Below, in pieces: positions 1 to 63,400 of a DNA stretch of 64,000 nucleotides. Position 1 is the first letter of the stretch. Every line of letters begins with the position of its first letter. A program made the translations under genes and the position numbers. The notes under the pieces are model-generated. The model did not search any database. It was not told the origin of the DNA and worked only from the letters and a program-made list of their open reading frames with translations. Origin of the DNA: Escherichia coli (GTDB lineage: Bacteria; Pseudomonadota; Gammaproteobacteria; Enterobacterales; Enterobacteriaceae); NCBI RefSeq assembly GCF_044324785.1, contig NZ_CP172127.1; one strand, written 5' to 3'.

Positions 1-168
1 CCAATTGATGAGCAAAAGACAATAACGAATTACTTGAGTGCAGCAACGATAAACATTGATTTACTGATTCAAGAGACTGATAAATCGATTGATCTTCTAA
101 AAGAACACCGCACATCGCTGATCAACGCGGCTGTCACAGGAAAAATAGACGTCAGGGAGGCGGTGTAA
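1..168 (+). CDS. hsdS: Type I R-M specificity subunit HsdS, C-terminal fragment (5' end outside window)
   Basis: Frame open from position 1 to TAA at 166-168; translation ends ...EHRTSLINAAVTGKIDVREAV, the conserved C-terminal helix of HsdS; stop overlaps the hsdR ATG (TAATG). Confidence 0.7.
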   Translation, partial: PIDEQKTITNYLSAATINIDLLIQETDKSIDLLKEHRTSLINAAVTGKIDVREAV

Positions 169-3100
169 TGGCTGCACATCATGAAGTGCATTTTGAACAA
201 TATATTACCGAGCAGTTGGTGAACAATGGCTGGAAAGAAGGCCATTCCTGCCACTATGACCAGCAACGCGCCCTTTACCCGCAAGATGTCATGGATTGGG
301 TAAAGGCCACCCAGCCAGATGCCTGGCACAAACTGAATAAACTGCATGGTGTGAATGCCGAGCAGGTGCTGTTGGAGCGTTTGGAAAAAGCCCTCTCTTC
401 CCACAAAGCTGGCAGTAAAACAGGTGGCACCATTAATGTGCTGCGTAAAGGCTTTACCATTGCAGGTTGCGGCACGATTGCCATGGGCCAACGCAAACCC
501 GAAGATGCGCGCAATGAAGAGCGTATAGCCCGTTATGAGCACAACATTTTGCGCGTGGTGCGCCAACTGAAATATTGCCCGACTCGCGAGTGGGAAATTG
601 ACTTGGTGTTCTTTATCAACGGTCTACCCGTTGCCACCGCCGAGCTAAAAACCGATTTTACCCAGTCGCTAGAATCGGCGATTGCGCAGTACAAAGAGGA
701 TCGTCTGCCCGTTGACCCAAAAACCAAGCGTAAAGAGCCGCTGTTAACCTTTAAACGCGGTGCAGTGGTACATTTTGCCATGTCTGATACAGAAATCGCC
801 ATGGCGACCAAACTGGCGGGAGAAAATACCTATTTTCTGCCCTTCAATAAAGGCCATGATGGTTCTACCTCTGATTTGCCCGTACACATCAACTTGCCGG
901 GTGAAGATGGAGAGTATCCGGTCAGCTATTTTTGGCAAGAAATTGCCCAAAAAGATAATTGGCTACGCATTTTCTACAGCTTTGTGTATGTCGAAACCAA
1001 AGAGGTTGCCGATAGCAATGGCAAGGTTGAGCGTAAGGAAACACAGATTTTTCCGCGTTATCATCAGTTAGCCGCAGTCAACAAGATGATTGATGATGCC
1101 CGCCAGAACGGCGCAGGCATGCAGTATCTTTGTGAGCACAGCGCCGGTTCGGGAAAAACCTCTACCATAGCCTGGACGGCCCATGATTTGATTCGTTTAC
1201 GCAGCACCGATGGTAAAGCGGTCTTTAAATCAGTGATCATTGTGACCGACCGCACCGTGCTGGATTCGCAGTTGCAAGATGCGGTGCAACAGCTGGATCA
1301 TCAATATGGGGTGATTAAGGTGATTGATCGCGAAAAGAGCAGCGAGTCGAAATCAAAACAGCTGACTGAAGCGCTATTGACTGGCACGCCGATCATTGTA
1401 GTGACGATTCAAACCTTCCCATATGCGTTAGAAGCGATTCTGACCAATCAATCTTTGGCACAAAGTAACTTTGCGGTGATCATCGATGAAGCACACACCT
1501 CGCAAACAGGCTCTACAGCCAAAGGGTTACGCGCAGCGCTTACTCTAAACCTTAGCCCTCAAGAGTTGGAGCAAATGAGCATTGAGGACATTCTTACTAA
1601 GGTGCAAGAAGCGCGCGCCATGCCCAAGAACGTTTCGCACTTTGCTTTTACGGCAACACCCAAGCACAGCACCAAGATGTTGTTTGGCCGCCCGAAAGAC
1701 CCTAACCAACCAGTGTCAGATGACAATCTTCCTGAATCGTTCCACCTCTACACCCAACGTCAGGCCATTGATGAGGGTTTTATTCTTGATGTGCTGGAGA
1801 ATTACACCCACTACGATACAGCCTACAAAATTGGTGAGAACAATCTGGATGAGAAGCGCGTAGACAGCAAACAAGCTCGCCGCGCGTTGGCGCGCTGGAT
1901 GTCACTGCACCCAACCACGGTCAGCCAAAAAGTCGAATTTATTATTAAGCACTTCAAGGCCAATATCGCTCACCTACTGGAAGGTGAAGCCAAAGCCATG
2001 GTGGTCACATCGGGCAGGCCACAGGCGGTGAAATACAAGCTTGCTTTTGATAAATACATTAAAAAGCATGGTATTGAAGGTATCCAAGCCTTGGTTGCCT
2101 TCTCGGGCAAAGTCCCCGGCAAAGATTTGGGTGATGAAGACAGCCAAGACCCGCTAGAAATTGATTTCGATAAAGAGTACACCGAGTACAACTTAAACCC
2201 AGACACGCACGGGGCTGACCTGCGCCATGAGTTTGAGAAAACCGAATATCGCGTCATGTTAGTCGCCAACAAGTTCCAAACGGGCTTTAATCAACCAAAA
2301 CTGGTTGCCATGTATTTGGATAAGAAAATATCCGATGTAGAAGCGGTGCAAACGCTGTCTCGCCTAAACCGCACCTATCCAGGCAAAGACACAACCTTCG
2401 TGATTGATTTTGTTAACGATCCACAAACCATTCTCAATGCGTTCAAAAAGTACGACAAAGGCGCGCAGCTTAATGAAGTGCAAGATGTGAACGTCATCTA
2501 TGACATCAAAGATATTTTGGATGAACAGAACATATACAACCATCAAGATTTAGAGTTGTTTAAGCAAGCGCGTGGTAAATCGATTCTCGGCCAATCACCT
2601 GACAAAAAGTCACACGCGCACAAGAAACTGCTAGCTGCCACACAACGCCCTACCGATGTGTTCAACGTTAAGCTCAAAGAGCTGGTTGATGCTGCAAACC
2701 ATTGGGATCAGCAATACAACAAAGCGCACCTTGCGGGTGATGAAAAAGCGGCGAACTACGCAGAATCTCAGCGCAGTGATTTCACCAAGCAGCGCGAAGC
2801 ACTAATGCGTTTTAAGTCAGATTTAGCTCGATTTGTGAAGCACTATAGCTATATGGCGCAATTGATTGAGTTTGGTGATCCTGAACTGGAAAACTTTGCC
2901 GCGTTTGCTCATTTGCTATCACGTCGATTGAAAGGGGTAACACCAGAAAACATCGATCTCAGTGCACTGGTACTAGAAAAATTCAAAATCAAATACGACA
3001 AAGAGCCGCTTCCAGAAGCGTTTAATCAGGTACTTGAACCTATCCGCCCCAACTATAACGACCCTGCGGATCGTGAACAGGCATTTCTTGCCGATATCAT

Positions 3101-3404
3101 TCGCCGCCTAAACGAACTGTTTGGCGATGTCGGCGACGAACCCGGTCGCCGAAACTTTGCCAACGGTACTATTACGCGTGTCACCCAAAATCCAATTGTG
3201 GTTGAGCAGATAGAAAAGCACGACAAGTCGATTGCCCTCAAAGGCGACTTGCCGCAAGCGGTGAAGCAAGCCGTTGTGCAGGCTCTGCTGAAAGAAGGTG
3301 ATATAGCCCGAACGCTACTCAAAGACCCACAAGTTATGGCAAGTTATGTTGAGTTGATTTTTGACATGATGAAGCAAGGTGCAGAACAGGCGGCGGTGAA
3401 ATAA
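168..3404 (+). CDS. hsdR: Type I restriction enzyme R subunit HsdR (1078 aa)
   Basis: Long ORF with SF2 helicase motifs (EHSAGSGKTSTIAW Walker A, IIDEAH DEAH box) and N-terminal nuclease region typical of HsdR; immediately follows hsdS. Confidence 0.9.
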   Translation: MAAHHEVHFEQYITEQLVNNGWKEGHSCHYDQQRALYPQDVMDWVKATQPDAWHKLNKLHGVNAEQVLLERLEKALSSHKAGSKTGGTINVLRKGFTIAGCGTIAMGQRKPEDARNEERIARYEHNILRVVRQLKYCPTREWEIDLVFFINGLPVATAELKTDFTQSLESAIAQYKEDRLPVDPKTKRKEPLLTFKRGAVVHFAMSDTEIAMATKLAGENTYFLPFNKGHDGSTSDLPVHINLPGEDGEYPVSYFWQEIAQKDNWLRIFYSFVYVETKEVADSNGKVERKETQIFPRYHQLAAVNKMIDDARQNGAGMQYLCEHSAGSGKTSTIAWTAHDLIRLRSTDGKAVFKSVIIVTDRTVLDSQLQDAVQQLDHQYGVIKVIDREKSSESKSKQLTEALLTGTPIIVVTIQTFPYALEAILTNQSLAQSNFAVIIDEAHTSQTGSTAKGLRAALTLNLSPQELEQMSIEDILTKVQEARAMPKNVSHFAFTATPKHSTKMLFGRPKDPNQPVSDDNLPESFHLYTQRQAIDEGFILDVLENYTHYDTAYKIGENNLDEKRVDSKQARRALARWMSLHPTTVSQKVEFIIKHFKANIAHLLEGEAKAMVVTSGRPQAVKYKLAFDKYIKKHGIEGIQALVAFSGKVPGKDLGDEDSQDPLEIDFDKEYTEYNLNPDTHGADLRHEFEKTEYRVMLVANKFQTGFNQPKLVAMYLDKKISDVEAVQTLSRLNRTYPGKDTTFVIDFVNDPQTILNAFKKYDKGAQLNEVQDVNVIYDIKDILDEQNIYNHQDLELFKQARGKSILGQSPDKKSHAHKKLLAATQRPTDVFNVKLKELVDAANHWDQQYNKAHLAGDEKAANYAESQRSDFTKQREALMRFKSDLARFVKHYSYMAQLIEFGDPELENFAAFAHLLSRRLKGVTPENIDLSALVLEKFKIKYDKEPLPEAFNQVLEPIRPNYNDPADREQAFLADIIRRLNELFGDVGDEPGRRNFANGTITRVTQNPIVVEQIEKHDKSIALKGDLPQAVKQAVVQALLKEGDIARTLLKDPQVMASYVELIFDMMKQGAEQAAVK

Positions 3405-3958
3405 TGAATACTGCGTTTCGGGTTTTACTTACGTTCAATGCAACATCACTACTAGTGATTATCTTTGCGGTACAAAAAGGGTACTCACTCGGATATTTCT
3501 TTGGTGGTTTCGCTTGCTTCGATTGGATAGCAGCACTTCCGAACGCAGTATCATATTTACTCTATTTTCTTATCCCTGTTTTATCGACTGGATTGAGTAT
3601 TTGGCTGAGTAAGTATTTGGGTAAAGACGATTTTAAGGCGGGTGAAGTAGCGAGTATTGAGCATGCCAATAACAGCTTCCTACCAAGTTATTTGGGTTAC
3701 TTTTTCGTGGCGTTGAGCATTGGTAACTGGGAGACATTGTGGTTTGTTTATGGCGTTTTGTTTGTTTTTACTCTCTTATCGCAAGCACTCTACTTTAACC
3801 CATTGTTTTTACTGTTTGGTTATGAGTTTTATAACATTACAACCAAAAACGGAACGGCCATTTTCCTTATTAGCCGAGAGCGCTACAAGAAGCCAGATGA
3901 CATCGAAATATCATTGGCTTATCGAATCAATAATTACACATTTATCGAGCGAGGATAA
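3404..3958 (+). CDS. Multi-pass membrane protein (184 aa), first gene of candidate two-gene defence module (KwaA-like architecture, unverified)
   Basis: ATG overlaps the hsdR stop; 4-5 hydrophobic helices (LLVIIFAVQ, FACFDWIAALPNAVSYLLYFLIPVLSTGLSIWL, YFFVALSIGNWETLWFVYGVLFVFTLL, LFLLFGYEF); visibly AT-richer than hsdR. Confidence 0.6.
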   Translation: MNTAFRVLLTFNATSLLVIIFAVQKGYSLGYFFGGFACFDWIAALPNAVSYLLYFLIPVLSTGLSIWLSKYLGKDDFKAGEVASIEHANNSFLPSYLGYFFVALSIGNWETLWFVYGVLFVFTLLSQALYFNPLFLLFGYEFYNITTKNGTAIFLISRERYKKPDDIEISLAYRINNYTFIERG

Positions 3959-4800
3959 TGATGGACCATGTACTGGCACATATAAAAACTAGAGCAAAAA
4001 AACGCATTTTCAAATTGGTTTCTGATCAATCTCTTTTTGATACCGTCACAATCGACTTAAATGCCTGTATTCCATACAATCCAGACCATAACCTTGACGA
4101 AGACTCATGGTTTAAAATTGAAGACTTTAGTCAAAAAGAGTTTTGTATTGAACTGCTAAAAAAAGACTATGATTCAAAAGACTACGATGACTTAACCAAA
4201 GATAACTTCGCCAAGATCGCCTACTTATTTGCAATTCAAGGTAATGATTTTTACTTTCAAAAAATCACTCCAAGCCTATTCGTAAAACGCAAAACGCTTG
4301 TTTTTGGTGAAGCCGCAGAAATTGAGAAGAGCCAAACACGTTTAGTAATAAACGCCTTACCTGATGCAGTGTACTTCAAAGTGGCCGATACCTTGATATT
4401 CAAAAATCTGGCAACGATCTCGAGCATTTTTAAAGGTATCGATGAGTTGTACAAGGAAGCAACAAAAGAAGAAGTTGAGCAGTTTTTAGATGCACAGTTT
4501 ATAGAGTTGGGTAATGACTACAACGTAGATAGCGTCTCAAAACCTAATAGAAAACGTATTGGCCTTGCTATGGCAACACTTGATGCGATGTCTGCTGACG
4601 ATAAAGCTAACATGCTTGATTATATCGACGGTTACTGCGGTGAACAGAAGCTGAAATTCGATAAAGAAAATCAGAAGTTTGAAATATCTAATGACGATGA
4701 GTTGAAGTTACTGCTTTATGGCATTGAACAACGCTTCTATACGACCCCGTTTGGCAAAGAAAAAAGGCTCGCTAACTCTGTAACCGCTATGGATAAATAA
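3958..4800 (+). CDS. Soluble protein of unknown function (280 aa), second gene of candidate defence module (KwaB/DUF4868-like by architecture only)
   Basis: Start overlaps the upstream stop (TAATGATG); acidic, K/D/E-rich, no hydrophobic segments, no motif I recognise; AT-rich. Confidence 0.55.
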   Translation: MMDHVLAHIKTRAKKRIFKLVSDQSLFDTVTIDLNACIPYNPDHNLDEDSWFKIEDFSQKEFCIELLKKDYDSKDYDDLTKDNFAKIAYLFAIQGNDFYFQKITPSLFVKRKTLVFGEAAEIEKSQTRLVINALPDAVYFKVADTLIFKNLATISSIFKGIDELYKEATKEEVEQFLDAQFIELGNDYNVDSVSKPNRKRIGLAMATLDAMSADDKANMLDYIDGYCGEQKLKFDKENQKFEISNDDELKLLLYGIEQRFYTTPFGKEKRLANSVTAMDK

Positions 4801-4820
4801 TAGCCCATTATCAGTAACAT

Positions 4821-5870
4821 ATGAAGGTTGATTCAATGGCCGATAACATCCCACAAGCTCCTCAAGGTGAGTTTGTTCTTTTCACCAGTGCTGATGGTCA
4901 AACCCGCGTTGAGTGTCGTTTTGAGTCTGACACCTTGTGGCTTTCTCAGGCTGCAATGGCAGAGCTTTATCAAGTTAGCTCTCAAGCAATCACCCAACAC
5001 GTAAAAGCTGTCTATTCTGAAGAAGAGCTTGAGCAAATTTCAACTTGTAAGGATTACTTACAAGTTCAACTGGAAGGTGGCAGAGAAGTAAAGCGAAGCA
5101 TTCGTCACTACAGTCTTCCGGTTATTCTTGCAGTAGGATACCGAGTTCGCTCAACACGTGGCACCCAGTTCCGCCAATGGGCAACCAGAATGTTGCAAGA
5201 ATACCTAATCAAAGGATTCGTCATGGATGACGAGCGCCTGAAAAATCCGCCCATTGGCCATTCTGCTGTGCCAGATTACTTTGATGAAATGCTGGAACGC
5301 ATTCGTGATATCCGAGCTAGTGAGCGTCGCGTTTATCTGCGAGTCAAAGAAATCTTTACCATGGCTGCTGATTACGAGCCATCTAACCAAGAGACCAACC
5401 GCTTCTTCCAAACCATTCAGAATAAGCTGCATTATGCTTGTACGCATATGACGGCTGCTGAGCTTATCGCCAGCCGTGTGGATGCCAGTAAGCCGGATAT
5501 GGGCTTAACCAGCTATAAAGGCGATGAAGTGCGCAAGACAGACGTTACTGTTGCCAAGAACTATTTGCGTGAAGACGAAATCAAAGAGCTTAATCGCATC
5601 GTCAATATGTGGCTCGACTTTGCTGAAGACCAAGCACTGCGTCGCAAGCAGGTATTTTTACAGGACTGGGCCGATAAGCTTGACCAGTTCTTGAGTTTTA
5701 ACGATAGAGATGTATTAAACGGTGCAGGAAAAATCTCCAAGAAAGACGCTGATGACAAAGCGAAATTGGAGTTTGACCGCTTTGCCCAGCAGCGCCGTCG
5801 TTTAAAAGAAGCCGAAGGCGCACGGGCCAATATCGCAGCCCTCAAGGCCATACTAAAAAAAGATAAATAG
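4821..5870 (+). CDS. RhuM-family protein (alternative start at ATG 4836)
   Basis: N-terminal segment LFTSADGQTRVECRFESDTLWLSQAAMAELYQVSSQAITQHVKAVY matches the RhuM family N-terminal region as I recall it; 20 bp downstream of the preceding gene, same strand. Confidence 0.55.
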   Translation: MKVDSMADNIPQAPQGEFVLFTSADGQTRVECRFESDTLWLSQAAMAELYQVSSQAITQHVKAVYSEEELEQISTCKDYLQVQLEGGREVKRSIRHYSLPVILAVGYRVRSTRGTQFRQWATRMLQEYLIKGFVMDDERLKNPPIGHSAVPDYFDEMLERIRDIRASERRVYLRVKEIFTMAADYEPSNQETNRFFQTIQNKLHYACTHMTAAELIASRVDASKPDMGLTSYKGDEVRKTDVTVAKNYLREDEIKELNRIVNMWLDFAEDQALRRKQVFLQDWADKLDQFLSFNDRDVLNGAGKISKKDADDKAKLEFDRFAQQRRRLKEAEGARANIAALKAILKKDK

Positions 5871-5927
5871 CCGATATAGTACAGCCCTGATCTCTAATGA
5901 GTTGAGGGCTGTGTTGTAAGATCATAA

Positions 5928-6604
5928 CTATAAAGGATTATCCATCTTAAAATCGTCGATATCGCCTGTCATTTTGAATAGATTGGTGTCATTCCAACGG
6001 CACAGTTGTCTAACCCGCATTAGATTTGAGTTGGCTCTGCGGATTATTGAGAAAGCATCTTCAACAGCAGTAATCACCGATTTTTCCCAATCTTGTGCTC
6101 GGGTAAAGGTGCTTTGTGAATAGCGATAATTGCCCTCACGGGGGAGGTAATGGCTGATCACCTGGTATTTGTCAGAATTCTTTTTAGGTTTAAACTCGTT
6201 GTAAACCCAGAAAATTTCGAGTTTTTTGTTTCTTTGCCTTACACGACAACCAAAATGACCTGGGTAGCCTTCAGAGTTTTTACCTCTATGTGCAACGTTG
6301 TTCAGCCAGAACAAGTCTGCAATTTTTTGTGCTATGTAGAAGTAGCGGAGCTGTTCTATTTCGGTTGATTTATGGGTGTAGTGTAGATATTGCTCTGATA
6401 TGGTTAAGGAAAAAGCATTGCGTCGTCTTGATTAACATTTGTGCTATTGACAATAAAGGTTTCCCAAATATTAATTTGTGTTTCTAGTCCTTTAAATGAT
6501 TTTGAGAAGGCTTCTATGTACTCAGATTGCGGTTGATTTCCCCCATTTAGTGCTGCACCAAATGTAGCTATCTGTTGTTCTAAAAATGAATGATTTTTGG
6601 TCAT
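5928..6604 (-). pseudogene. Hypothetical AT-rich gene, apparently frameshifted (66-aa frame 6404-6604 continuing in +1 frame to 5928)
   Basis: Good SD (AGAGGA) before ATG at 6604; second frame opens just before the first frame's stop and runs ~155 codons with no ATG (ORF track used TTG at 6314); abutted by the IS3-family TIR. Confidence 0.35.
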
Positions 6605-7225: not shown

Positions 7226-8252
7226 CCCCTCTCCTGGAGCGGCATAAAATTATTTCTCTTGTCCGTGAGGCCGTCGCCAACGGCGCCCGGAAAGGTCAGG
7301 CTTGTAGGTGTATCGGTATTTCTATTCGGACACTTCAGCGCTGGACTAATGGCAACATCATCACCACGGACCGAAGATCCGATACTGTAAACAGCTCTCC
7401 CCGAAATAAGCTGTCAGAAGCGGAAAGATTGCGAATACTGGAGTTGTGCAACTCTCCAGAGTTTGCATCCTTGCCTCCAAATGTGATCGTACCAACTCTG
7501 GCAGACAGAGGTATTTATATTGCTTCTGAATCAAGTTTTTATCGTGTACTGAAATCAGCCAAGCAGTTGAAGAAACGATCCCGTGAATGCCAGTATAAAC
7601 TGGCCTGATGTACTCAGGGCCGTTGCACCGAATCAAGTCTGGAGTTGGGACATCAGCTATTTGCCGTCCTGGGTCAGAGGCCAGCATTTTTACCTCTATA
7701 TGATCGTCGATATTTACAGTCGCAAAATTATTGCTGCTGAGGTATTTGCCAGCGAATCTGGAAAACATGCAGCAGAACTACTCCAGCGTGCAGTATGGAA
7801 TGAAAAATGTTCATCCAACAATCTGGTACTCCATTCTGATAACGGTGGTCCCATGCGCAGTGACACGTTGTTGGCGAAAATGTATGCGCTTGGTGTGCTA
7901 AGTTCTTATTCCCGGCCAAGAGTCAGTAATGATAATCCTTACTCAGAATCTTTGTTCCGGACTCTCAAATATTGTCCCTGGTGGCCTGAGAACGGTTTTC
8001 GCACTATTGATGATGCCAGAGTATGGGTAAACCAGTTTTGTAAACTGGTACAACTTTGAACATAAGCACAGCGGGATCAAATACGTCACGCCAGCCGAGC
8101 GTCATCAAGGTAATGATATGAAAATACTGGCGGCCAGAAAAGCAGTATACCAGCTGGCACGCGAACAGCATCCTGAACGTTGGGGAAAGCATCTACGTAA
8201 CTGGGACTACATATCAGAAGTCTACCTGAATCCAGAAAAAGAGGCTGCATAA
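7222..8252 (+). pseudogene. IS3-family transposase OrfB (DDE integrase core), interrupted by extra frameshifts/stops
   Basis: Integrase-core sequence split over three frames (...CQYKLA stop; VWSWDISYLP...SDNGGPMRSDT...KYCPWWP; HSGIKYVTPAERH... ending 8252). Confidence 0.55.
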
Positions 8253-9032: not shown

Positions 9033-9305
9033 ATGTGGTTATCTGTGCTGGCGTTTGGCAGACAGGCCGAAGCACTGGCCAGACACCAGAAAGGCGAACT
9101 GGTAAGCGTGGCAGGTAACATGCAGGTCAGCCAGTGGACAGGGCAGAACGGGAAAACGCGGCAGGGACGGCAGGTTATCGCAGACAGCGTAATCAATACT
9201 CAAACGGTGCGGCCAGGAGGAAGCAGACGCGAAACCACAGGTACACAGGGTAATCAGCCACCAACGGGAGGCGACGCCACTTACGGAGATGATATACCCT
9301 TATGA
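9033..9305 (+). pseudogene. ssb: Single-stranded DNA-binding protein (plasmid/ICE-type SSB) remnant lacking its N-terminal part
   Basis: ...VLAFGRQAEALARHQKGELVSVAGNMQVSQWT...GDATYGDDIPL resembles the SSB OB-fold C-terminal half and acidic DDIPF-type tail; upstream frame is closed. Confidence 0.55.
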
Positions 9306-9322
9306 ATTAAGCGGGGCGCAAC

Positions 9323-9643
9323 ATGAACAACAGCACACTGAAGAGCCGGACAATAAGCGACGCGACAGCGGAAGAACTCGAGAGCAGGGGACTGTGGCGA
9401 CGTGCTGCCAGAAGGTGGCAGGATGTGATGATTACTCTTGAGAAAGACAGTCACAGACAGCTTGCAGTAATGAGAGCAAGGGAATGTATCAGGAAGGCAA
9501 AACGCCCGATACCTGAAAGCCGTATTGATATTCATACAGTCAGAAAGGCCGCAGACAGGACAATACAAAAAATGGGGCTACCGTCGCTTACTGATGAAAT
9601 ATGGCGCGATTACCCTGATAGCGTTAACGATGACGGTTATTAA
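9323..9643 (+). CDS. Hypothetical protein (106 aa)
   Basis: ORF directly after the SSB remnant; no recognisable motif. Confidence 0.25.
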   Translation: MNNSTLKSRTISDATAEELESRGLWRRAARRWQDVMITLEKDSHRQLAVMRARECIRKAKRPIPESRIDIHTVRKAADRTIQKMGLPSLTDEIWRDYPDSVNDDGY

Positions 9644-9926
9644 CTGGCGGGGGAAACACGATACCAGCGGGCGTGACTCGGGAGAATATATACCGCTGGT
9701 GGAACATTACCGGCCCTGATGGCTGGTGGCGTGCGTTACGACCTGAAAGACCATCCATGCGGGAAGGTGACACAGGAGCACCTGGCGAACGCGGGGAAGC
9801 GACTGGATGAGATTAAGAAAAAACAGCAGGAGCGCAGAAAAAGTAACCGTCTCATTAAAACGTCTTTCGCCTCCCTTTCCTGTTTCCTATGCTAATGTCC
9901 ATTTTCGCAGTAAAAGGACATTTACG

Positions 9927-10440
9927 ATGAATGCACGAAAGGCGGTACTGGCAGATAATCCGGAATTGATCCTGCGTTTGCTACAACTGAAATTTGACGA
10001 GACACTGTCGTACCCGCGCATTTCTGCACAGACCGGTGTCAGCAAAACCGCTATTTTTTCTCTGGTGAGGCGATTTCATCAGGTATTCACTGACGGGCAT
10101 CTTTCTGGTGAATATTCCTGCGTGCAACTGACCGGGCTCTTTTCCCGGGGCGATAATATTCAGCCCCGACAGTGACTCAGCCTGTAAAAACAGAGAAAAC
10201 CCGTCGGAACCGATTTTCACCAGAGTAAAAATGGAGACTTGTTCAGCAAACTCTTTTACCCGGAGCCTGTGTGGCCCAGATTGCACGAGAGTCTGGCATC
10301 AATGATAATGTTATTTTCAAATGGCTCAGACTCTGGCAAAACGAAGGGCGTGTTTCGCGGCGTCTTCCGGTAACAACCACTTCTGACGCAGGCGTTGAAT
10401 TATTACCTATGGAGATAACGCCGGATGAGCAGAAAGATCC
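9927..10440 (+). pseudogene. IS-type transposase N-terminal HTH remnant (two HTH segments in different frames; family uncertain, possibly IS630-like)
   Basis: MNARKAVLADNPELILRLLQLKFDETLSYPRISAQTGVSKTAIFSLVRRF (SD AAAGGA upstream) and, in another frame, MAQIARESGINDNVIFKWLRLWQNEGRVSRR; truncated where the ugpB remnant begins. Confidence 0.3.
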
Positions 10441-10980
10441 GATGATTCCCCTACCGCCAGCTTTTCGCCTGCGCCGGTATACGTTTCTTTATCTTTGCCC
10501 TGCATCACCCACAGGCTGGCTCCGCCGATAATGGCGTTTTGTGGTGCATCTTTCGCGTCAGCGTCGTAAGGCATCATGCCTACGCCGTAGTTGAATTTGG
10601 CGTACTCGCGAATGTTGGCAAGAGAACCGGAAGAGGCGGTGGTCATCGCGCAATCACCTCTATAGAACTTCTCGGTGGATTCATCCTTACGCCCGACGTA
10701 GATGAAGTCGCCCTTCTTGTTCATCTCCTCGAGCATGACGATGTGTTTCACCTGCTCCGGCTTGTTGAACTCCAGCACCGCGTCCGTGGCGTCAAAACCG
10801 TTGTTTTTGCTGGCAAACGGCAGACCGTTCCTGGCGCTAAAGTTTTCCAGTTGTATCCACCTCTTTGCCCATTTCCCCTTCCATAGAGTTCCAAAACGGA
10901 ATGGTCGTCACTGCCTGTGCATTGCCCATTAACGCCAGTCCGAGCACCAGTGATGAAGCTGTATAATGTAACGGTTTCAT
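10407..10980 (-). pseudogene. ugpB: sn-glycerol-3-phosphate-binding protein UgpB remnant (internal deletion, frameshift, truncated C-terminus)
   Basis: Minus-strand ATG at 10980 gives [42 protein letters not shown] (UgpB signal peptide/N-terminus), then after a frameshift jumps to ...[42 protein letters not shown]...[18 protein letters not shown] and terminates. Confidence 0.7.
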
Positions 10981-11735
10981 CGTTTATCTCTCTTGCTTGT
11001 TGTACCTGATGTGCAAATTCACTCGTTTTATGCTCGCGGGATTACATATCATGCCCGAATTGCAGAAAAATAACTTTTTATTACATGTGTAAGACAGTAA
11101 AACCTCAGAAAGATGACAGTGTGGTGCCGGCGCGGGTGAGGAAAAATGGAAGATGGGGAATGTATAAGCGGGAAAATAGGAGGGCCTGTGGATTGTAGAT
11201 AATGTGCTCATCGTTTTCATGCCGGATGAGACATAAACACTTTTATCTGAGCATTTCTATGTATTCGGACAGTTGTTCTTGGCATCCAATGGTGCAGGTT
11301 CTGTAGTGTGTGGTGGTAGCAATAGCCTCAGCTTCATTACAATATTTATTATCTCAAACATTCAAATGTCCTTGGCCCACTTTGATAGTCACTTTGTCGT
11401 GGTTATTATGTCTTTCCTTTTCCTAAAGCCCCATTATCTGTGCTGCAGCTTTCCCTCCATCAACGAACCAACAACCAGCAATGCCTGTCCCCCATAACAG
11501 CCCGGAAAATGGCACATTCTCAGATGATTTATCCCGCGAGCTATCCCGCCTACAGCTAATCGACCTGTTTAATACATCTTGACAGTCTGCTGGCAAGGTT
11601 ACCCTTCCCAATATTGTCCGTTTTTAACATATCTAATACGAGCCCCCATCAAATATGCTTCGTGTTCACTGTAAGTGACTAAAAGTGCTGTCTGCCCTGC
11701 CTCATGCAAAATATCACGAACTTCACGGCTCAGTC

Positions 11736-12237
11736 CTACCCTTGTTTTTTATCCAAGCTGGAAAATGGTTCATCTAGCAACAGGATATCTGGATTTGGAA
11801 CCAGTGACCTTGCAAGGGCAATACGTTGCTGCTGACCTCCTGAAAGTTCATGAGGATAGCTGTCTGAATAGTGGAATAAATCCACCATTTTCAACAGTTC
11901 TGTAACTCTGGTTCGCTGTACATCTCTCGGCAGTCTTCTCAGACCAAAGCCACGTTTTGTGAAACTGTAAGGTGGGGAAAGAGCGCATATTCCTGAAAGA
12001 CTATACCGACATGACATTTCTCCGGCGGAAAATGCATATCTGCGCTGGCCACACAATGCTGTGATACAAAAATTTCCCCTTGTTCAGGCGCTCAAAACCA
12101 GCTACAGCACGTAGTACTGTTGTTTTTCCACAACCTGATGTACCAAGCAGACATGCCAGTTCACCTTTACAGACTGACATACCCCCCGCCCCGCAATACA
12201 GGATATGGGCTATTGGGATAAACAACATGGACATCAT
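11736..12237 (-). pseudogene. ABC transporter ATP-binding protein remnant (frameshifted)
   Basis: Walker A LLGTSGCGKTT and signature/Walker [16 protein letters not shown]...[12 protein letters not shown] lie in two different frames. Confidence 0.55.
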
Positions 12238-12267
12238 TAATACATAAAGCTGTTTCTTCAGACATAA

Positions 12268-12868
12268 TCAATCCTCTGATTTCAGTCTTTCAGCTGGAAC
12301 AAACAAAATAACCGGAAATGTCCCTGCAAGAACAATCATTAAAGCAGAGATGGCCCCTTCTTCAAAAGTTCCACGGGCTGCTTCAGCATAAAGAAGTGTT
12401 ACTGGCAGTTCTTTCATCGCATCAGTGAAAACCAGCAGGGCACTGCTCACCAGAGCAACACAGGAAAGTGAACCCGAACAAAAGTTCCTGTACCATTTTC
12501 TCCCAGCAGACGTGAGGCTTGTTCCAGTGACTCTGGTATACGTCCCAGCCGGACATCAAGTGCGCCGATGGCTATTGCCTGAAATCGCATCGTACAGCAA
12601 ATCACCAACAGGACACCGACAGACATTAAAGGTAACCCCCTGTAATCCAGTAGTTCCGCCAGCCAGCGGTCATTTAGGGAGTCAGAAAACCAATCGCCAG
12701 AATCGTGCCTGGAAAGGCATAACCCAGCGACGCCACTCTCATCACACCGCGCCTGAACAGTGGCATAGCGTTGAGGAATTCCGGGCATTCCAGACTACGA
12801 GCAGACTGACAAAAATTACGACAAAGCGTTGAAGGAAGCCAGCGCGCGGACTGACAGGACTTTACCAT
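12268..12868 (-). pseudogene. ABC transporter permease remnant (split over three frames)
   Basis: Hydrophobic permease-like fragments incl. ...AMKELPVTLLY... and ...ALDVRLGRIPESLEQASRLLG... in successive frames. Confidence 0.45.
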
Positions 12869-12918
12869 AAAAACACAGGCTAACCGCGCCTGCGTTTTTA
12901 ATGACGGATGAAACAGAA

Positions 12919-56981: not shown

Positions 56982-57403
56982 TGTCGGCTTTATCGTAACC
57001 TCCCGTACTGGTCACGGGCAGACTGTTCATCATGTTAAACCCAGCCGCTGTCAGATCATGCACCGGCCGGATGGCGGGCTGACCTGCCCCGCCGCGCTGC
57101 TGCCCGCCAATCCATTTCTTACCTTCCTTCCCGGTGGCCTGACGTCCGGCCTCGTCCCCTTTCACCGCATCACCGTCACCGCTGTTCACCACCTTCTTGT
57201 ACTCTTCCAGCATCGCTGGCCTGCGTCCATTTGCTGCGATCAGAAAAGTCCATCATCCGTTTTGCCATGTTCTGGCAGTTCAGTTACGCCTTGTCGAAAG
57301 CCACATTCGCCTGCAGCACACCGTTGGTGATCATGTCGTACAGGCCGGGGTTGGCACGCTGTATCACCATCGCCGGCAGACTGGCAGCGGCGCCGGTCGC
57401 CCC

Positions 57404-57745
57404 CTAAATCACATCCCCCATCAGATTTTTAAAGCCGTCGGTCAATCCGTTAAGATGATTACCCACCGTGGTCTTCAGGTCAAAGTTGCCGCACATCAGA
57501 TCGCTGCTCCAGCCCAGGTCCATACCCAGCTTCTGCATGTTGCTGCGCGTGGCCAACTGTGAGATCACCGAGCCGCCACCCAGCGTATAGAACAGTTTGT
57601 CGGATACGGCGCCATCCACGGATTTCCCGTAACCGAACGTGCTGTCATTCAGTTTCGGCAGGGAAAGAAGATCAGCCATCGCCGGAATACTGCAGTACAG
57701 CATCACACTCAGTGCCACCATACCTGTTTTCATCTTCATCATCAT
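57404..57745 (-). pseudogene. Conjugative-transfer TraH-like protein, N-terminal remnant
   Basis: Signal peptide plus ...DLKTTVGNHLNGLTDGFKNLMGDVI; ORF ends prematurely relative to TraH-size proteins. Confidence 0.35.
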
Positions 57746-57751
57746 GGTTCC

Positions 57752-58726
57752 TTAAAAATTCGTACTGCCAAGGAATCGCTGCCCGCGCTTTTCGAAGCAG
57801 CTGTAAGGCTGCCACAGTGCAAAGGCTGCATTACCGTTCTCCGCCGCCTGGTGTTCACCATCCGGGAAAACGGCACAGGAACGCGACACTGACGGCGTCA
57901 GTCGCTGCCATTTGTGATTGCGGGTGCCGGTGTTTTCCTCCACCGCCTCCGGGGGCCAGTAGCCGTCACGTTTCACGCCCTTAACCTCCCTGTAGACATG
58001 CGACTCCCCCATCCGCGTGATAATGTCGGCCACCCGCTGAGCCCCCACCGCCGCGGCCCGGTCATCATCGCTCTGCATCACAAAACCACTCCGGTGATAA
58101 ACGCTCCCCCACATGTTTTTATCGGCCTAGCTGCCAATCTCGCGTTTGCCGGGAACCTGTGCCTCTGGATACAGGGATTCAGGTAATCCCGTTCGCTAGA
58201 CGATGCTGTCCAGGGTACTGAGGAAATAGGCCATGGCCGGTGTCACCGGTGAATCACAGCTGAATCCGGGTACCATCCCGCCGATAAGCTGTGTGGCCGG
58301 ATGACCCAGCGCATCTGCATATTTGAAACGAATTGCTGAACGGCGCTTCCCCTGTATTTTCATATCCGCCGGATTTCCCCCGCCGGCACTCAGCCCGGAC
58401 AGGCCGTCAGTGATGGCATTCTCCGGGCCACCTGCGGTCCGGCTGACCAGCGACATCTCTTTCCAGGGATTACCACCCGGTGCCGTATAGGTGGAAATAA
58501 CCACTTCCGGGATGAAATGTGTCACCTTCACGGAAATTCTGACCGTACAGCCAGACGCGCTGCAGTAAAGCCAGTAACAAATCCCGCTGACACGCCAGCT
58601 GATATAGTCCGGTGCCGCAGTACTGGCGATAATGCTGGCGGTGTTCAGTGATACAGACGCCAGGGGCAGTGATGCCACACTCAGTAACAGCACGCCGGTA
58701 CGCAGACGACATTTCAGGGACATCAT
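57752..58726 (-). pseudogene. Conjugative-transfer TraU-like protein, split by frameshift
   Basis: Two consecutive ORFs (58196-58726, 57752-58114) with Cys-rich segment GICYWLYCSASGC and TraU-like C-terminal pattern. Confidence 0.35.
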
Positions 58727-58839
58727 GGCTGCACTCCTCCCTCAGCACGGATTTTCCCGGCCATCACCACATCCATGGTGCCGTAAACCACCTCACTGTC
58801 ATCAAACACCACGGCAGGGTATTTCTTCACGCCCAGCGA

Positions 58840-59118
58840 CTAGGCATGTGCCACATCGCGGTAATGACCGGCCAGTTCCGCCTGCATCGTCTGCCATTCG
58901 GGAGACTTCATACGTACCCTGACCACCGATTCAGCCTCACCCGCATCAGCAGGCAACAGGCCCCAAAAGCGGCTCTGAAGCTGCTCAGGCGCATCCAGCA
59001 GAACCACCCTGACACCATCAGGAGGATTAACGGGAAGATGCTGAGAATCGGTATAAATTGTTGTGCCGGCAGACGCTGCCAGCGGCAGGAAAAACAGGGA
59101 ACAGAAAATCCGGTACAT
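58840..59118 (-). CDS. Small exported protein (92 aa), possible transfer-region protein
   Basis: N-terminal signal peptide MYRIFCSLFFLPLAASAG. Confidence 0.3.
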   Translation of the reverse strand: MYRIFCSLFFLPLAASAGTTIYTDSQHLPVNPPDGVRVVLLDAPEQLQSRFWGLLPADAGEAESVVRVRMKSPEWQTMQAELAGHYRDVAHA

Positions 59119-59313
59119 CGTACACCTCAGTCAGATATTATCTGACTGACAGCGTGCGAAGAAAGCGCTCATTTATCAGCAATAAATTAAAAACGGGATT
59201 AAAAAATTACGGTGGGATCCGGGGAAGTGTATCTGCCAAGCATAACAGACAGTCTGTGATTATACCCGGCCTTTCACAAAGCCGGGGAACTGATTCATAC
59301 CAAGTGGTGATTT

Positions 59314-59565
59314 TCAACAATAAGTATAATGAGGTTGTCCCGGCACCGGTGGCAGTGGTTCGAGATAGACGTCATCAACAAAAACACAGGGGAATTTTTC
59401 AACTGCACATCCAGCACGCTCAGACATTACCTTCAGACTGATACCATGTTTCTCAGCATCAATAAAGAGGACATCTGCCCCTGTTTCATCCCGGAGATTT
59501 GTCGCATGATGCATGATCCGGTGTACTGAAGGACATGTTTTGTAACCAAAAACACATATACGCAT
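59314..59565 (-). CDS. Glutaredoxin-like small protein (CPxV variant)
   Basis: MRICVFGYKTCPSVHRIM ... KFPCVFVDD fits the glutaredoxin/NrdH fold pattern with the second active-site Cys replaced. Confidence 0.4.
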   Translation of the reverse strand: MRICVFGYKTCPSVHRIMHHATNLRDETGADVLFIDAEKHGISLKVMSERAGCAVEKFPCVFVDDVYLEPLPPVPGQPHYTYC

Positions 59566-60051
59566 GTTGCACCTCCTGATCACTGGTTGACGCCGATAAT
59601 AAAACAATAATGTGAGCGTAAAAAATGCACCTCATACCACATTTCTGTAAAAGGCTCTGGCTATCACTGCAAAAAGCAAAATCTTAATTCCAGCATCACT
59701 TGTTACTCTCATTCCGTCACTTATATTTACCCACATGGCGATGTATTTAATTACTGCCCATAAGAATAAAAGCCGCTGGCGGATTATTTCTTTATTACCC
59801 GGATGCGGTCACAAGCCCACACATCGTCAACTACCTGCCGGTAATATTAACTGTCAGAAGAACGCATACATCCGGATGTTTACAGAGTCGCGCGCCTGGT
59901 CACAGGTGACAACAGAAGTATGCCATACTAAAGGAGTAAACGGCGGGTCACTGGTGATCAAACACCTGCATCGTGTGTTGCTGCCACTGCCCTCAGGTGA
60001 CAGAGGCAGCATCTTTACGTATTATAATGCGTTATATCGGGTTTGTTGTTA

Positions 60052-62139
60052 TCAGAACTGATAGTTCAGCGACATCCAGTAATTTCTCTCAGGTATCACA
60101 TAACCCGTTGTCGATGCCCCCGTCTGGAAGTAATCACCCGCATAAAGCGTACCACTGCCGGCACGATACAGACTTACGTCACTGTAATCCTTGTTAAGCA
60201 CATTATTCACCGCTGCATTCAGCATCAGTGCATCCGTCACTTTCCACGACATGCCCGCATCCAGTACCGTCCAGGCTTTCAGATATTCACCTTTCTCATC
60301 ATACACTTTCTTCTGTACAGCTGAGAGTGACGAATAATTCTGGGTGAAACGTGGCGTTTTCCCGCGGTAACGGGCACCCAGCCATGATGTCACCTCTTCA
60401 GTAATCTGCCAGTTCAGTTTCGCATTCACCATATGCTCAGGGGTGTAACTCAGTGGTGCACCTTTATTATCCCCATCCCGTTGTTCACTCTGCGTCCAGG
60501 TATAATTCAGAGACAGAGTCACATCCTCTGACAACAGAGGCAGTGTGCCGGCAAATTCCACGCCCTGAGTCCTAGCCTTTCCGCTGTTTGTGTAGCTGCG
60601 GGTATTATCATCAATGGAATAAGATACGATCTTGTTGGAGAATTCTGTCATAAAGCCCGTGATATTGGCGTTCAGACCGGCATGATTATCGTAATACACG
60701 CCCGCTTCATAACTGACACTCTCCTCCGGCTTCAGGTCCGGGTTACCGAGAAGATTCGTACGCCCCTGACCGGACACACCGCTGATCCCCTTATGTAACT
60801 GCCCCATGCTGGGCGCCTTATATCCCGTGGTCACCCCACCTTTCAGCGTCCACGCATCAGTCACATCCCAGACCATATATGCCCGGGGACTGAAGTGTCC
60901 TCCGAACACCTCATAGCGTTCATAGCGGCTACCCGCAGTCAGTGCAAATGCATCCGTGATATACCACTCATCCTCAACAAATGCCGACCAGCTTTTCTGA
61001 CGGAAGGTTTCACCAGTACTGGCGAGAACAACCCCGTCTTTCATGGAGGAGTTCTGATACTCACCACCGACGGTAACCTTGTGTGATTCCCCCAGAGGTG
61101 CAAACAGTAATGAGCTCAGGATAAGATTCGACTCCTTAAGCTCCCTCGGCTGGCCGGCAAGCCCCCATTTATCACGCTGCAGTACGCTACGTACAAGCTG
61201 ACGGCCTTTATTTTCCGTCTCATTCCAGTTCAGAGATGACTTCCAGGCTCCGAAGGTGAATGTATGATCATAGCCTGCTGAAATTTTATTACGCTCATAG
61301 CGCAGGGTGCGATCATAACCGCCCGTCAGACTGCCCAGCTGGCCATCTCGGTTATCATAACGCTGCCGGGCGATATCCATATCAATCCAGAGTACATCCT
61401 TGTCCGTCGCTTTCCAGTCAAGACGACCACCTGCATTATAATTCTGTGATTCCGTGGGATAAGGGATACGCGTAGCTGAGGTGTCGCTCAGTGATGTGAC
61501 CGATGAGCCCTGACGCTGCTGTGTGCTGCCACGTACCTGAAGGCTGAGTGAATCATCCACAAGGGGACCGCTGCTCCAGAAATTAAACTGGCTGCTGTTC
61601 CCCCATTTGTTACTTTCCTGCAGGTTCAGCCCGGCATTAACCGAAGAGCGCCATTTGTCTGCATTCTTTTTGGTGATGATATTCACCACGCCCCCCATGG
61701 CATCAGAGCCGTACAGAGTGGACATGGGGCCCCTGATAATCTCAATACGTTCGATGGCGGCCAGAGGTGGCATAAAACCCGTATTCATGGCAGCATAACC
61801 GTTTGGGGTTACGTCACTGCTCCCGCCCTGACGGACACCATCGATCAGTATCAGCGTATAACTGGCAGGCATTCCGCGGATGCTGATTTCCAGCCCACCT
61901 GTTTTACCCGTACCGCTTTCAACATCCACCCCCTCTACGGATCTCAGTGCCTCCCCCAGATCATGATACTGGCTGGATCGCAAATCCTCCTGGCTGATCA
62001 CTGAAACACTCGCAGCTGCACTGGTTAATTTTTTTTCATAGCCAGACGCCGTGACTACCATCACATCTTCCGCAGCCATACTGCTGACTGAAAACCCGAG
62101 ACAAGGGATGGCTACTGAAGCCAGAGTGGTTACTCGCAT
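60052..62139 (-). CDS. TonB-dependent outer-membrane siderophore receptor, IrgA/Iha-like (695 aa)
   Basis: Signal peptide, plug-domain motifs ([26 protein letters not shown]), C-terminal aromatic residue (..NYQF); Fur box upstream. Confidence 0.8.
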   Translation of the reverse strand: [695 protein letters not shown]

Positions 62140-62188
62140 ATCTTCTCTCCGATTATATTAATCAGAGAGAAGATAAACAAACGCAAGA

Positions 62189-62207
62189 GATAATGAGAAT
62201 GATTTGC
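62189..62207. promoter_or_regulatory. Putative Fur box upstream of the TonB-dependent receptor gene
   Basis: GATAATGAGAATGATTTGC matches the 19-bp Fur consensus GATAATGATAATCATTATC at 15/19 positions, ~50 bp upstream of the start codon. Confidence 0.5.
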
Positions 62208-62451
62208 TTTTGGTTTTTACATAAAAAAGCAAAAAATTACAAAATATTACATAAGGTTCTACTATACCCCGAATTTCAGTTGAGGACGTTCTTTTCTCTA
62301 GGGGAAAGTAACGGATAGCAATCGTTGACGATCCATATCGGATTTTTGCACTATGGGTATTTATCCAATCTTTATCAGTTTCTTGTCCTTGGATATGTTA
62401 ATCATACACTATCGGATATTTCGTACATCAGACAGGTGAATATAATTAATA

Positions 62452-62736
62452 ATGAGGAGTTTTATGGACAATAGAACAATTACTCTGCAGGAATTACTCG
62501 AGTACATGTCAATGCTTCGAGACGACATGAATGCTCTCACGGTTGCATTTTCATATCTGGCTTCATCGCTTCCTAAGGAACAGATGATACAAATACTGGC
62601 ATTCATTCATTTTGAATCAAATAATTCCAGATGGTCTTCAGAACAGCAGAAATCTTTCAAATGGCTAGCATCACTACTGGAGGGCTGTTATACAGTTCAC
62701 ACAAACATTTTTGATATACCATCAAAGAACCACTAG
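62452..62736 (+). CDS. Hypothetical AT-rich orphan ORF (94 aa)
   Basis: ORF in strongly AT-rich DNA with plausible SD (AGGAG) upstream. Confidence 0.3.
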   Translation: MRSFMDNRTITLQELLEYMSMLRDDMNALTVAFSYLASSLPKEQMIQILAFIHFESNNSRWSSEQQKSFKWLASLLEGCYTVHTNIFDIPSKNH

Positions 62737-63059
62737 TACATTATGATACATTCCCTCTGAAATATATTTCTACTTTGAGCGCCTCTGACTTTATGAGGCG
62801 CTTTGTCCAGCAAACCAAACATACTCGCTGGAAACAGAGTAAAGTATTATTATCCCCGATACATCTATATTTTACAACAGCGCATCCATATATTAATTAA
62901 CGATGCAGTTAAGTTCCCCATTCTACCCAATTTACTGTTTTTGTTGTTTGAAAGAAGACTCTCATTAAGTGAGAGCCATCTGTAAGTATCCCGCATAATC
63001 GCTCCATTCATATTTAGAGATCATCCGGAATAATCAATCTGATAACGAAGAAAATCGCT

Positions 63060-63183
63060 ATGCGTAAAGCCCGTATTACTGAGTATTAGATCATCGCTGT
63101 AATTAAATCGGTTGAAACCGGACGAACAATTAAAGATGTTTGTCGGGAAGCCGGTATTTCTGAAGCCACTTACTACATCTATT
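63060..63183 (+). pseudogene. IS3-family OrfA N-terminal remnant with in-frame stop
   Basis: MRKARITEY-stop-IIAVIKSVETGRTIKDVCREAGISEATYYI is the IS3-family OrfA HTH with a premature TAG. Confidence 0.5.
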
Positions 63184-63400
63184 GACTACCTCAGTTTTGC
63201 AAGCACTGATTCTGGTTTTGGATTGTTGCTTACATCTATCCGGCATCAGGAAAACCTGTGCCCAAATAGGGAATCCACACACAATCGCCTCTACAACTGG
63301 ACGACCTCTGAGGCCAGTACAAAAATCAGGTTCCGATTGTGCAGGTGCAACCCGTCACCATTTCTCAGTACGCTGCAACTTTTGCTGAAAGAGATTAACT

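Follow-up and report, generated by a model that had tools for sequence, protein, structure and literature searches.

A divergent Escherichia coli iha allele among remnants of an integrative and conjugative element

This analysis concerns a TonB-dependent receptor gene in a 64,000-nucleotide stretch of Escherichia coli DNA (RefSeq assembly GCF_044324785.1, contig NZ_CP172127.1), referred to below as the window. Judged by its sequence, the receptor is iha itself, a gene already known and named in RefSeq, and its product is, by homology, the bifunctional catecholate siderophore receptor/adhesin Iha in a rare, divergent subtype. The gene is probably a Fur-controlled catecholate receptor/adhesin of the clade found in integrative and conjugative elements (ICEs), kept by purifying selection inside a decayed ICE. 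The additions to what was known of this gene are modest and consist of a deeper lineage, an ICE slot common to both clades, a leader hairpin, and likely under-detection. Knowledge of the protein family is unchanged by these findings.

The original prediction described an intact 695-residue TonB-dependent receptor resembling IrgA or Iha and proposed a search against Iha, IrgA, CirA and IroN. The reading frame is uninterrupted, with plug and barrel domains recognised by Pfam, and the protein scores 1538.7 bits (cutoff 924) against NF010012 (PRK13486), the NCBIfam equivalog model for the bifunctional siderophore receptor/adhesin Iha, with residues 1-695 aligned to profile positions 1-696. Amino acid identity is 90.4% to Iha of strain EDL933, with one single-residue gap, and 89.9% to the Iha of Nissle and uropathogenic E. 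coli (UPEC). Because of the equivalog score and the 90% identity to EDL933 Iha, the gene can be assigned to iha itself; the earlier description therefore stands and is refined, in that the sequence places the gene in a divergent subtype and not among the canonical alleles. The protein is 100% identical to RefSeq WP_001266790.1, named iha, bifunctional siderophore receptor/adhesin Iha. The neighbouring families that were tried all remained below their cutoffs: CfrA (483.8 bits against 1200), IreA (398.5 against 1197), CirA (NF007478; 330.7 against 745) and the FepA subfamily (268.4 against 493). The closest solved structures are those of catecholate receptors, CirA (E = 7e-79) followed by PirA, FepA and PfeA; the structure search returned none of Iha itself. 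The nearest relatives outside E. coli, in Citrobacter (73%), Serratia odorifera (68%) and Shimwellia (65%), are apparently chromosomal genes and not ICE-borne.

Architecture, Fur box and selection on iha

The window protein has the full plan of a TonB-dependent receptor: signal peptide, TonB box, plug, 22-strand barrel and a terminal aromatic residue. Translation would start at an ATG preceded by the Shine-Dalgarno sequence GGAGAG 7-12 nt upstream, and an in-frame TAA lies seven codons ahead of the start. The sequence DVMVVTA presumably represents a TonB box of the xTxVVTA type of CirA, FepA and BtuB, and the N-terminal stretch aligns with the CirA and BtuB chains from residue 24-25. In the AlphaFold2 model, 22 strands run from residue 164 to 694 and are joined by short periplasmic turns. 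The mean predicted local distance difference test score (pLDDT) of this model is 70.8, with the barrel at about 80 and the plug poorly predicted. The chain ends in LNYQF, so that the last residue is phenylalanine. A scan for an intrinsic terminator 3' of iha gave none, the only structure being a short stem-loop at about 59987-60009 that lacks a U tract.

For comparison, the window allele was aligned with the alleles of EDL933, Nissle/UPEC, a pO113-type plasmid, LPA/LAA, an ICE copy from E. coli that produces Shiga toxin (STEC) and AR_0089. All but the last form the canonical clade, at 85-86.5% nucleotide identity to the window allele. The AR_0089 allele, carried by an intact ICE, is 94.8% identical to it.

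The Fur box agrees with the original prediction of a 15/19 match about 50 bp upstream of the gene. On the plus strand, positions 62189-62207 read GATAATGAGAATGATTTGC, which matches GATAATGATAATCATTATC at 15 of 19 positions (14 of 19 on the gene strand). It is the sole site of this quality on either strand of the window, that is, in 128,000 positions. Of 5000 dinucleotide shuffles made from the AT-rich DNA upstream, 13-22 attain 15/19 (p of about 0.003-0.004), and block-wise shuffles of the whole window lead to an expectation of 0.1 such sites. Two further Fur-like sites with 14/19 matches, at 4240-4258 in a hypothetical gene and at 7925-7943 in an IS3 pseudogene, were taken as chance. The core AAT(C/T)ATTCTCATT is present in all six E. 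coli iha alleles. The matching columns read GATAATTATTTGTATTATC (14/19) in the Citrobacter freundii homologue and GATAATCATTTTCATTATC (16/19) in that of S. odorifera, and apart from these columns the flanks of the two homologues cannot be aligned with E. coli iha.

The region around the box is shared among the E. coli alleles. About 115-130 bp upstream of the ATG can be aligned across all of them, and the homology extends to 62253 against the AR_0089 ICE copy and to about 62227 against canonical iha islands. The EDL933 equivalent of the candidate promoter listed in Table 1 is TTGTCA-17-TAAAAG, and the candidate falls on invariant alignment blocks. With either this promoter or the alternative -10-like element, the Fur box would lie on the promoter or just downstream of it.

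The proposed mode of action is carried over from characterised Iha and from receptors of the CirA/FepA type, on whose homology the ligand, adhesion, Fur repression and expression of the window subtype all rest. Canonical Iha is reported to mediate adherence to epithelial cells and TonB-dependent catecholate siderophore uptake (Tarr 2000 and Leveille 2006, as summarised in PMC6024878 and PMC12200846), and canonical iha is reported to be regulated by Fur (Rashid et al. 2006, as cited in PMC6024878). Under iron-replete conditions, Fe2+-Fur would occupy the box, on the promoter or immediately downstream of it, and block transcription, and iron limitation would lift this repression. Export of the precursor would proceed by way of its 23-residue signal peptide, and the mature protein would insert in the form of a 22-strand barrel closed by a plug. 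Its surface loops would bind ferric catecholates, namely enterobactin and its breakdown products, with import upon engagement of the DVMVVTA box by TonB-ExbBD. The exposed surface could also mediate adherence.

The substitution pattern agrees with the earlier suggestion that the intact gene is under selection. The ratio of nonsynonymous to synonymous substitution rates (dN/dS) of iha amounts to 0.138 in the comparison with AR_0089 and to 0.066-0.086 in those with canonical alleles, and it lies between 0.07 and 0.14 for all allele pairs. Between the window and AR_0089, the adjacent ICE gene remnants give 0.69 (TIGR03757) and 0.33 (TIGR03756), with three nonsense mutations in 1.37 kb; in intact ICEs, the same two genes have values of 0.10-0.15. 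The low dN/dS of iha, set against the relaxed values and the stops next door, supports selective retention of the gene while the adjacent ICE genes decay.

The distribution of substitutions over the protein was also analysed on the AlphaFold topology. Relative to EDL933, 5.3% of residues are substituted in the predicted extracellular loops, 7.1% in the plug, 11.5% in the strands and 20% in the periplasmic turns. Substitutions are thus depleted in the loops (odds ratio 0.46, p = 0.026), and they are mostly conservative exchanges in strands. Given this depletion, there is no sign of surface diversification, whether antigenic or for escape from colicins or phages, and this reading was rejected. 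Because no other part of the barrel is as conserved as the predicted loops, the surface for ligand binding and adhesion is probably unchanged.

Allelic clades and the ICE slot

A 3.2-kb stretch including iha occurs with 100% identity on the chromosome in 59 of the 5,426 complete E. coli genomes, and the copies in the database, 59 in all, show at least 99.8% identity. Many of the carriers come from chickens; human clinical strains and SMS-3-5, an environmental strain, are among the others. Any iha is present in 1,583 genomes. Nucleotide identity to the window gene is 80-90% in 1,536 records, 90-95% in 20 and at least 99% in 59. Canonical-clade alleles are 91-99% identical among themselves, and the second clade is formed by the window allele and its AR_0089 relative, at 89.8-90.9% amino acid identity to the canonical clade. 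Synonymous divergence (dS) between the two clades is 0.61-0.77, which is far above the usual within-species values for E. coli core genes. Three subtypes have been published, iha-LAA/LPA, iha-pO113 and iha-EDL933, with mutual similarities of 91-94% (Colello et al. 2019, PMC6920203). In the present alignment they are 91-97% identical to one another, and all three fall in the canonical clade. No description of the second clade turned up in the searchable literature. On the alignment, the window type would consequently represent a fourth, deeper iha lineage that was not found described.

Some genomes carry two iha types together, for example GF60, CM2, TUM1886 and TUM9803. Along the gene, the window and AR_0089 alleles diverge unevenly, with 88-91% identity over nt 600-1275 (60865-61540) and 97-99% over the last 800 nt (60052-60864). 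Because of this unevenness, the mosaic suggests intragenic recombination among iha lineages.

The location given in the original prediction, on an island between transfer-gene remnants and AT-rich DNA, was confirmed. The TIGR03757 and TIGR03756 remnants lie 3' of iha, and DNA of low GC content lies 5' of it. The GC content is 35-38% at about 62200-63200, about 51% in iha and 57-60% in the ICE remnants. A complete transfer module is lacking in the window, where only TIGR03757, TIGR03756 and one more transfer gene occur, all stopped or truncated, and the whole 64 kb contain neither a tRNA gene nor an integrase gene.

Relatives of the window carry the gene in a more complete setting. In AR_0089 and 23 other genomes, the 94.8% identical iha lies between a conjugative ATPase gene with a 128-residue gene on one side and TIGR03757 on the other. 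The AR_0089 element contains a tRNA gene, ParA, an SPI-7-type DnaB, ParB, topoisomerase III, PilL, TraD and the TIGR037xx set, and it looks complete, judged on the sequence of the half upstream of iha. Direct repeats of 77 nt, 91% identical and 2,404 bp apart, bracket its iha cassette (positions 7770-7846 and 10174-10250 of locus L003). The repeats correspond to the 3' end of the 128-residue gene, and neither is present at the window copy. In 11 genomes, the AR_0089-type backbone occurs at 98-99% identity without iha and with a single copy of the repeat. In five STEC or other genomes, an ICE backbone 80-85% identical to it carries a canonical-clade iha (96.9% to EDL933) in the same slot. Between these two ICE lineages, dS is 0.65 for iha and 0.69-1.4 for the flanking transfer genes; the similarity of these values is as expected from co-divergence in place.

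The limits of shared sequence differ between the settings. What canonical islands have in common with the STEC-type ICE is limited to the cassette, which extends from a point some 300 bp upstream of iha to one 70-90 bp downstream. The window shares only 60042-62227 with canonical islands, and it shares 59979-62253 together with the transfer-gene remnants with the AR_0089 ICE. On the basis of these limits and of the decayed transfer genes, the window can be read as an iha stranded in a dead ICE, within a mosaic island of insertion sequence (IS) debris. Under the preferred explanation, an ICE of the SPI-7/pKLC102 class bore iha as cargo, at a fixed slot in its type IV secretion module. The element in the window would then have decayed to pseudogenes and IS debris, with iha and about 115 bp of control region staying under purifying selection.

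A wider scenario can be put forward tentatively and is, as a whole, somewhat doubtful. In this scenario, iha is an ancient resident of the fixed slot between the 128-residue gene and TIGR03757 and has co-diverged with the ICE backbones into two clades. The island and plasmid copies (OI-43/48, the UPEC pheV island, LAA/LPA and pO113) would be an escaped cassette of 2.4-2.5 kb. The hairpin in the leader of this cassette would serve as a post-transcriptional gate, perfected in the window lineage by a quasi-palindrome template switch, and expression of the subtype could be conditional on a further factor. The ICE slot would provide a simple account of the scatter of iha over unrelated islands and plasmids.

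A small RNA (sRNA) gene was also considered as a possible part of the cassette. The Esr41 gene lies near iha in OI-43/48 (Waters et al. 2017, PMC5286369). In the EDL933 OI-43/48 locus, a 77-nt sRNA-like element (positions 9372-9448 of locus L002, minus strand of the locus) with the motif CUUGCUUCCCAG and a strong terminator lies about 1.3 kb from the canonical iha and fits the published description of Esr41, on which its identification as a candidate rests. Neither the window nor any of the other iha loci contains a match to this candidate, and membership of Esr41 in the iha cassette was rejected.

Leader hairpin and rival explanations

The 66-nt iha leader is predicted to fold into a hairpin whose stem includes the entire Shine-Dalgarno sequence and the A of the AUG. 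Its minimum free energy is -27.7 kcal/mol (z = -6.6), and none of 200 shuffled sequences was equally stable. Every E. coli iha allele has a homologous, interrupted hairpin, with values of -21.4 kcal/mol for AR_0089 and about -17 kcal/mol for canonical alleles. In distant homologues, a TATCTTAC-like stretch likewise pairs with the gene's own Shine-Dalgarno sequence. RNAalifold over the iha leaders gave 26 pairs with a single compensatory change, so that covariation is thin. Compared with AR_0089, the 5' arm of the window hairpin shows five clustered substitutions (TTTCGCCCG to TTCTCTCTG), four of which perfect the palindrome. This cluster, as read from the sequence, resembles the outcome of a quasi-palindrome template-switch mutation. 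For the window allele, the Shine-Dalgarno sequence has a predicted probability of 0.00 of being unpaired; the value is 0.25 for AR_0089 and about 0.5 for canonical alleles, and it remains flat from 25 to 42 C.

The hairpin is a candidate for post-transcriptional control of a Fur-regulated receptor. It may be a translational gate by analogy with the chuA leader, or merely a tolerated structure. A simple RNA thermometer finds no support in the folding predictions, as the predicted accessibility of the Shine-Dalgarno sequence stays the same between 25 and 42 C for all E. coli alleles. RyhB was considered as an opener of the hairpin, with the leaders of the window, AR_0089 and EDL933 as targets. 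The RNAduplex pairing was no better than for shuffled sRNA, with 0.57-1.0 of the shuffles at least as good, and RyhB was rejected as unsupported. A search of Rfam gave no family for the iha leader or its flanks, only chance hairpin matches far under the gathering scores.

Several observations weigh against an expressed, functional receptor gene kept by selection. The hairpin is the chief ground for doubting strong expression of the window allele: as the Shine-Dalgarno sequence is predicted to stay fully paired between 25 and 42 C, the leader may allow only weak or conditional translation. A consensus scan found no sigma-70 promoter on the iha strand, and the AT-rich upstream DNA could attract silencing by H-NS. 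Recent spread alone could explain the intactness of the window copy; since the 59 copies are nearly identical, intactness by itself is weak evidence of selection. The window subtype differs from the tested Iha proteins at about 67 residues, and the assignment of loops and strands is approximate given the moderate quality of the model.

Some of these points come together in a rival explanation, in which the intact iha is effectively a silent relic, with translation blocked by the perfected hairpin and possibly by H-NS, and too young to have acquired disabling mutations. The stability of the window leader and its completely paired Shine-Dalgarno sequence, compared with the partly open ones of AR_0089 and canonical alleles, would fit this explanation, as would the recent spread indicated by the 59 copies, the heavy decay of the surrounding island and the lack of a consensus promoter in the scan. 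However, the dN/dS of 0.138 contrasts with 0.33-0.69 and three stops in the adjacent genes, which accumulated over less divergence. In addition, the Fur box, Shine-Dalgarno sequence, start codon and TonB box have all been kept. A hairpin occurs at this place in every iha allele, including canonical ones that are expressed experimentally, and pairing of the Shine-Dalgarno sequence is therefore compatible with expression. A silent relic is consequently considered unlikely. Functional divergence of the window subtype, with another siderophore specificity or with the loss of either the receptor or the adhesin role, is a still more improbable reading. It could draw on the 10% amino acid divergence, on the dS of about 0.6-0.77 from the canonical clade and on the genomes with two iha types side by side, which could indicate non-redundancy, but substitutions are depleted in the predicted surface loops, the equivalog score lies far over the cutoff, and dN/dS is uniformly low. 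Scarcely credible is the possibility that AT-rich intergenic DNA produced the Fur-box match by chance and that iha is not iron-regulated. The region has a GC content of 27-33%, the 15/19 match is imperfect, and the promoter scan offered nothing for the box to overlap. Nevertheless, only 0.3-0.4% of local dinucleotide shuffles match as well, the site is the best in both strands of the window, the same columns are Fur-like in six E. coli alleles, Citrobacter and Serratia, and Fur control of canonical iha has been published (Rashid et al. 2006, as cited in PMC6024878). The reading of iha as a Fur-controlled receptor/adhesin retained by selection is thus preferred.

Window content, typing and comparison with known systems

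The coordinates of iha, its control region and its immediate neighbours are collected in Table 1.

Table 1. Features of the iha locus in the window
Feature	Coordinates	Strand	Details
iha coding sequence	60052..62139	minus	single open reading frame, ATG start, 695 residues, zero internal stops
Signal peptide, residues 1-23	62071..62139	minus	from translation; putative cleavage from A-x-A-like SMA/A and canonical Iha alignment
TonB box DVMVVTA, residues 25-31	62047..62067	minus	from sequence
Plug domain PF07715, residues 39-151	61687..62025	minus	Pfam, E = 2.5e-27
Beta-barrel domain PF00593, residues 221-647	60199..61479	minus	Pfam, E = 6.2e-65
Leader hairpin	62139..62175	minus	17-bp stem (one G.U), 3-nt loop; repeat search
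Conserved promoter/leader block accompanying iha	62140..62253	minus	homology limits; invariant TTTTGT and TGTAAAA blocks
Fur box	62189..62207	strand-neutral	15/19 to consensus; proximal edge 49 nt from iha ATG
Alternative -10-like CATTAT	62190-62195	minus	by eye; within Fur box
Candidate promoter, TTGTAA - 17 nt - TAAAAA	62237-62242 and 62214-62219	minus	by eye
AT-rich DNA upstream of iha	62254..63200		35-38% GC; no counterpart in ICE loci
TIGR03757 (DUF1525) ICE gene remnant	58723..59118	minus	premature stop at codon 93 of 132
TIGR03756 (TraU-like) ICE gene remnant	57752..58726	minus	premature stops at codons 177 and 200
Third ICE transfer gene, 5' half	57003..57742	minus	truncated at nt 739 of 1419; 1-bp insertion, stops

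Two small open reading frames flank the receptor gene. The first, at 62452-62736 on the plus strand, encodes a 94-residue hypothetical protein (WP_000370415.1), is divergent from iha and lies within the AT-rich DNA; it has no Pfam or NCBIfam match and does not occur in the ICE loci. Between iha and the TIGR03757 remnant, a 780-bp segment (59199-59978) has no counterpart in the three compared ICE loci. An unannotated frame of 97 residues at 59314-59607 (minus strand) gives a weak match to the GrxA glutaredoxin family (E = 6e-8, below cutoff), with CPSV where the glutaredoxin active site has CPYC.

The remainder of the window contains further mobile and decayed DNA. Positions 1-6314 hold intact genes: those for the S and R subunits of a type I restriction-modification system, a RhuM-family gene, a MobI(A/C)-like gene for conjugative transfer and two that are hypothetical. 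Beyond them come IS3/IS5 debris and an ssb-PerC-ProQ/FinO trio at 9059-9945. At 10508-12872, beside a PhoX-family gene, lies a decayed iron ABC transporter, whose genes for the solute-binding protein, ATPase and permease each carry a frameshift or a truncation; with it the island has lost a further iron-related system. A Mu-like transposable prophage of 38.3 kb occupies 14452-52792, with a MuA-like integrase-catalytic protein, an ExeA/MuB-like protein, a DUF935 portal and head genes. A comparison with strain 1517k places the insertion in a PhoX-family gene, with a GTTCC(C) target duplication and the ends TGAT...ATCA. The same prophage, with essentially 100% identity, is found elsewhere in the chromosome of at least 12 complete genomes, and in 498 genomes there is a place covering at least 80% of the prophage query. 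None of the records listed has it at the site it occupies in the window.

The divergence of the window allele is of practical relevance for typing. The iha gene is a standard virulence-typing marker for extraintestinal pathogenic E. coli (ExPEC), avian pathogenic E. coli (APEC) and STEC. The classical polymerase chain reaction (PCR) primers have their sites at 61939-61959 and 61037-61057 within iha. They fit EDL933 and Nissle without a mismatch and yield a product of the expected 827 bp. The window allele differs from them at three and two positions, both 3'-terminal bases among these. Cut-offs of 90% identity are common in gene finders. Because of the mismatches at the primer 3' ends and the 86% nucleotide identity to the reference gene, the window-type subtype is likely missed by PCR and by identity-thresholded gene finders. 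Strains with only this type, many of them from poultry and others from human clinical sources, are probably scored as iha-negative, and surveys would under-count iha.

The nearest known system is the Iha of E. coli O157:H7 (EDL933/86-24, OI-43/48 tellurite-adherence island) and of UPEC/Nissle, which resembles the window protein in length (within one residue) and family model. Canonical and window proteins share the signal peptide, TonB box, plug, barrel and C-terminal LNYQF, and the canonical 5' control region is homologous to that of the window, including the Fur box and the leader hairpin. The canonical Fur box matches the consensus at 13 of 19 positions in a hand count made with no tool, compared with 15 in the window. 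The flanks differ: EDL933 iha is surrounded by ter genes and IS fragments, whereas ICE remnants surround the window gene. The published subtypes and the window allele can be regarded as an allelic series of one gene on differing mobile elements, with several genomes carrying two subtypes. Among characterised receptors, CirA (the colicin I receptor, PDB 2HDI/2HDF), FepA, PfeA and PirA are TonB-dependent catecholate receptors with the same domain plan as Iha. Nevertheless, by its model score, CirA belongs to another orthologous group than the window protein.

The second comparison is with ICEs of the SPI-7/pKLC102/PAGI-2 class, to whose transfer system the neighbours TIGR03756 and TIGR03757 belong. 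The ICEEc2 family represents this class in E. coli (Roche et al. 2010, as cited in PMC11537424). In the window the element is dead, with three pseudogenes, whereas in relatives iha lies inside an apparently complete, tRNA-adjacent element. The third comparison is with the leader of chuA/shuA, which is controlled by a FourU RNA thermometer and the sRNA CyaR (PMC9002310). Both chuA/shuA and iha are Fur-regulated genes for TonB-dependent receptors, and in both a U-rich stretch of the leader pairs with the Shine-Dalgarno sequence. Unlike the chuA thermometer, the iha hairpin is predicted to stay closed throughout 25-42 C, and its pairing with RyhB is at the level of shuffled sequences.

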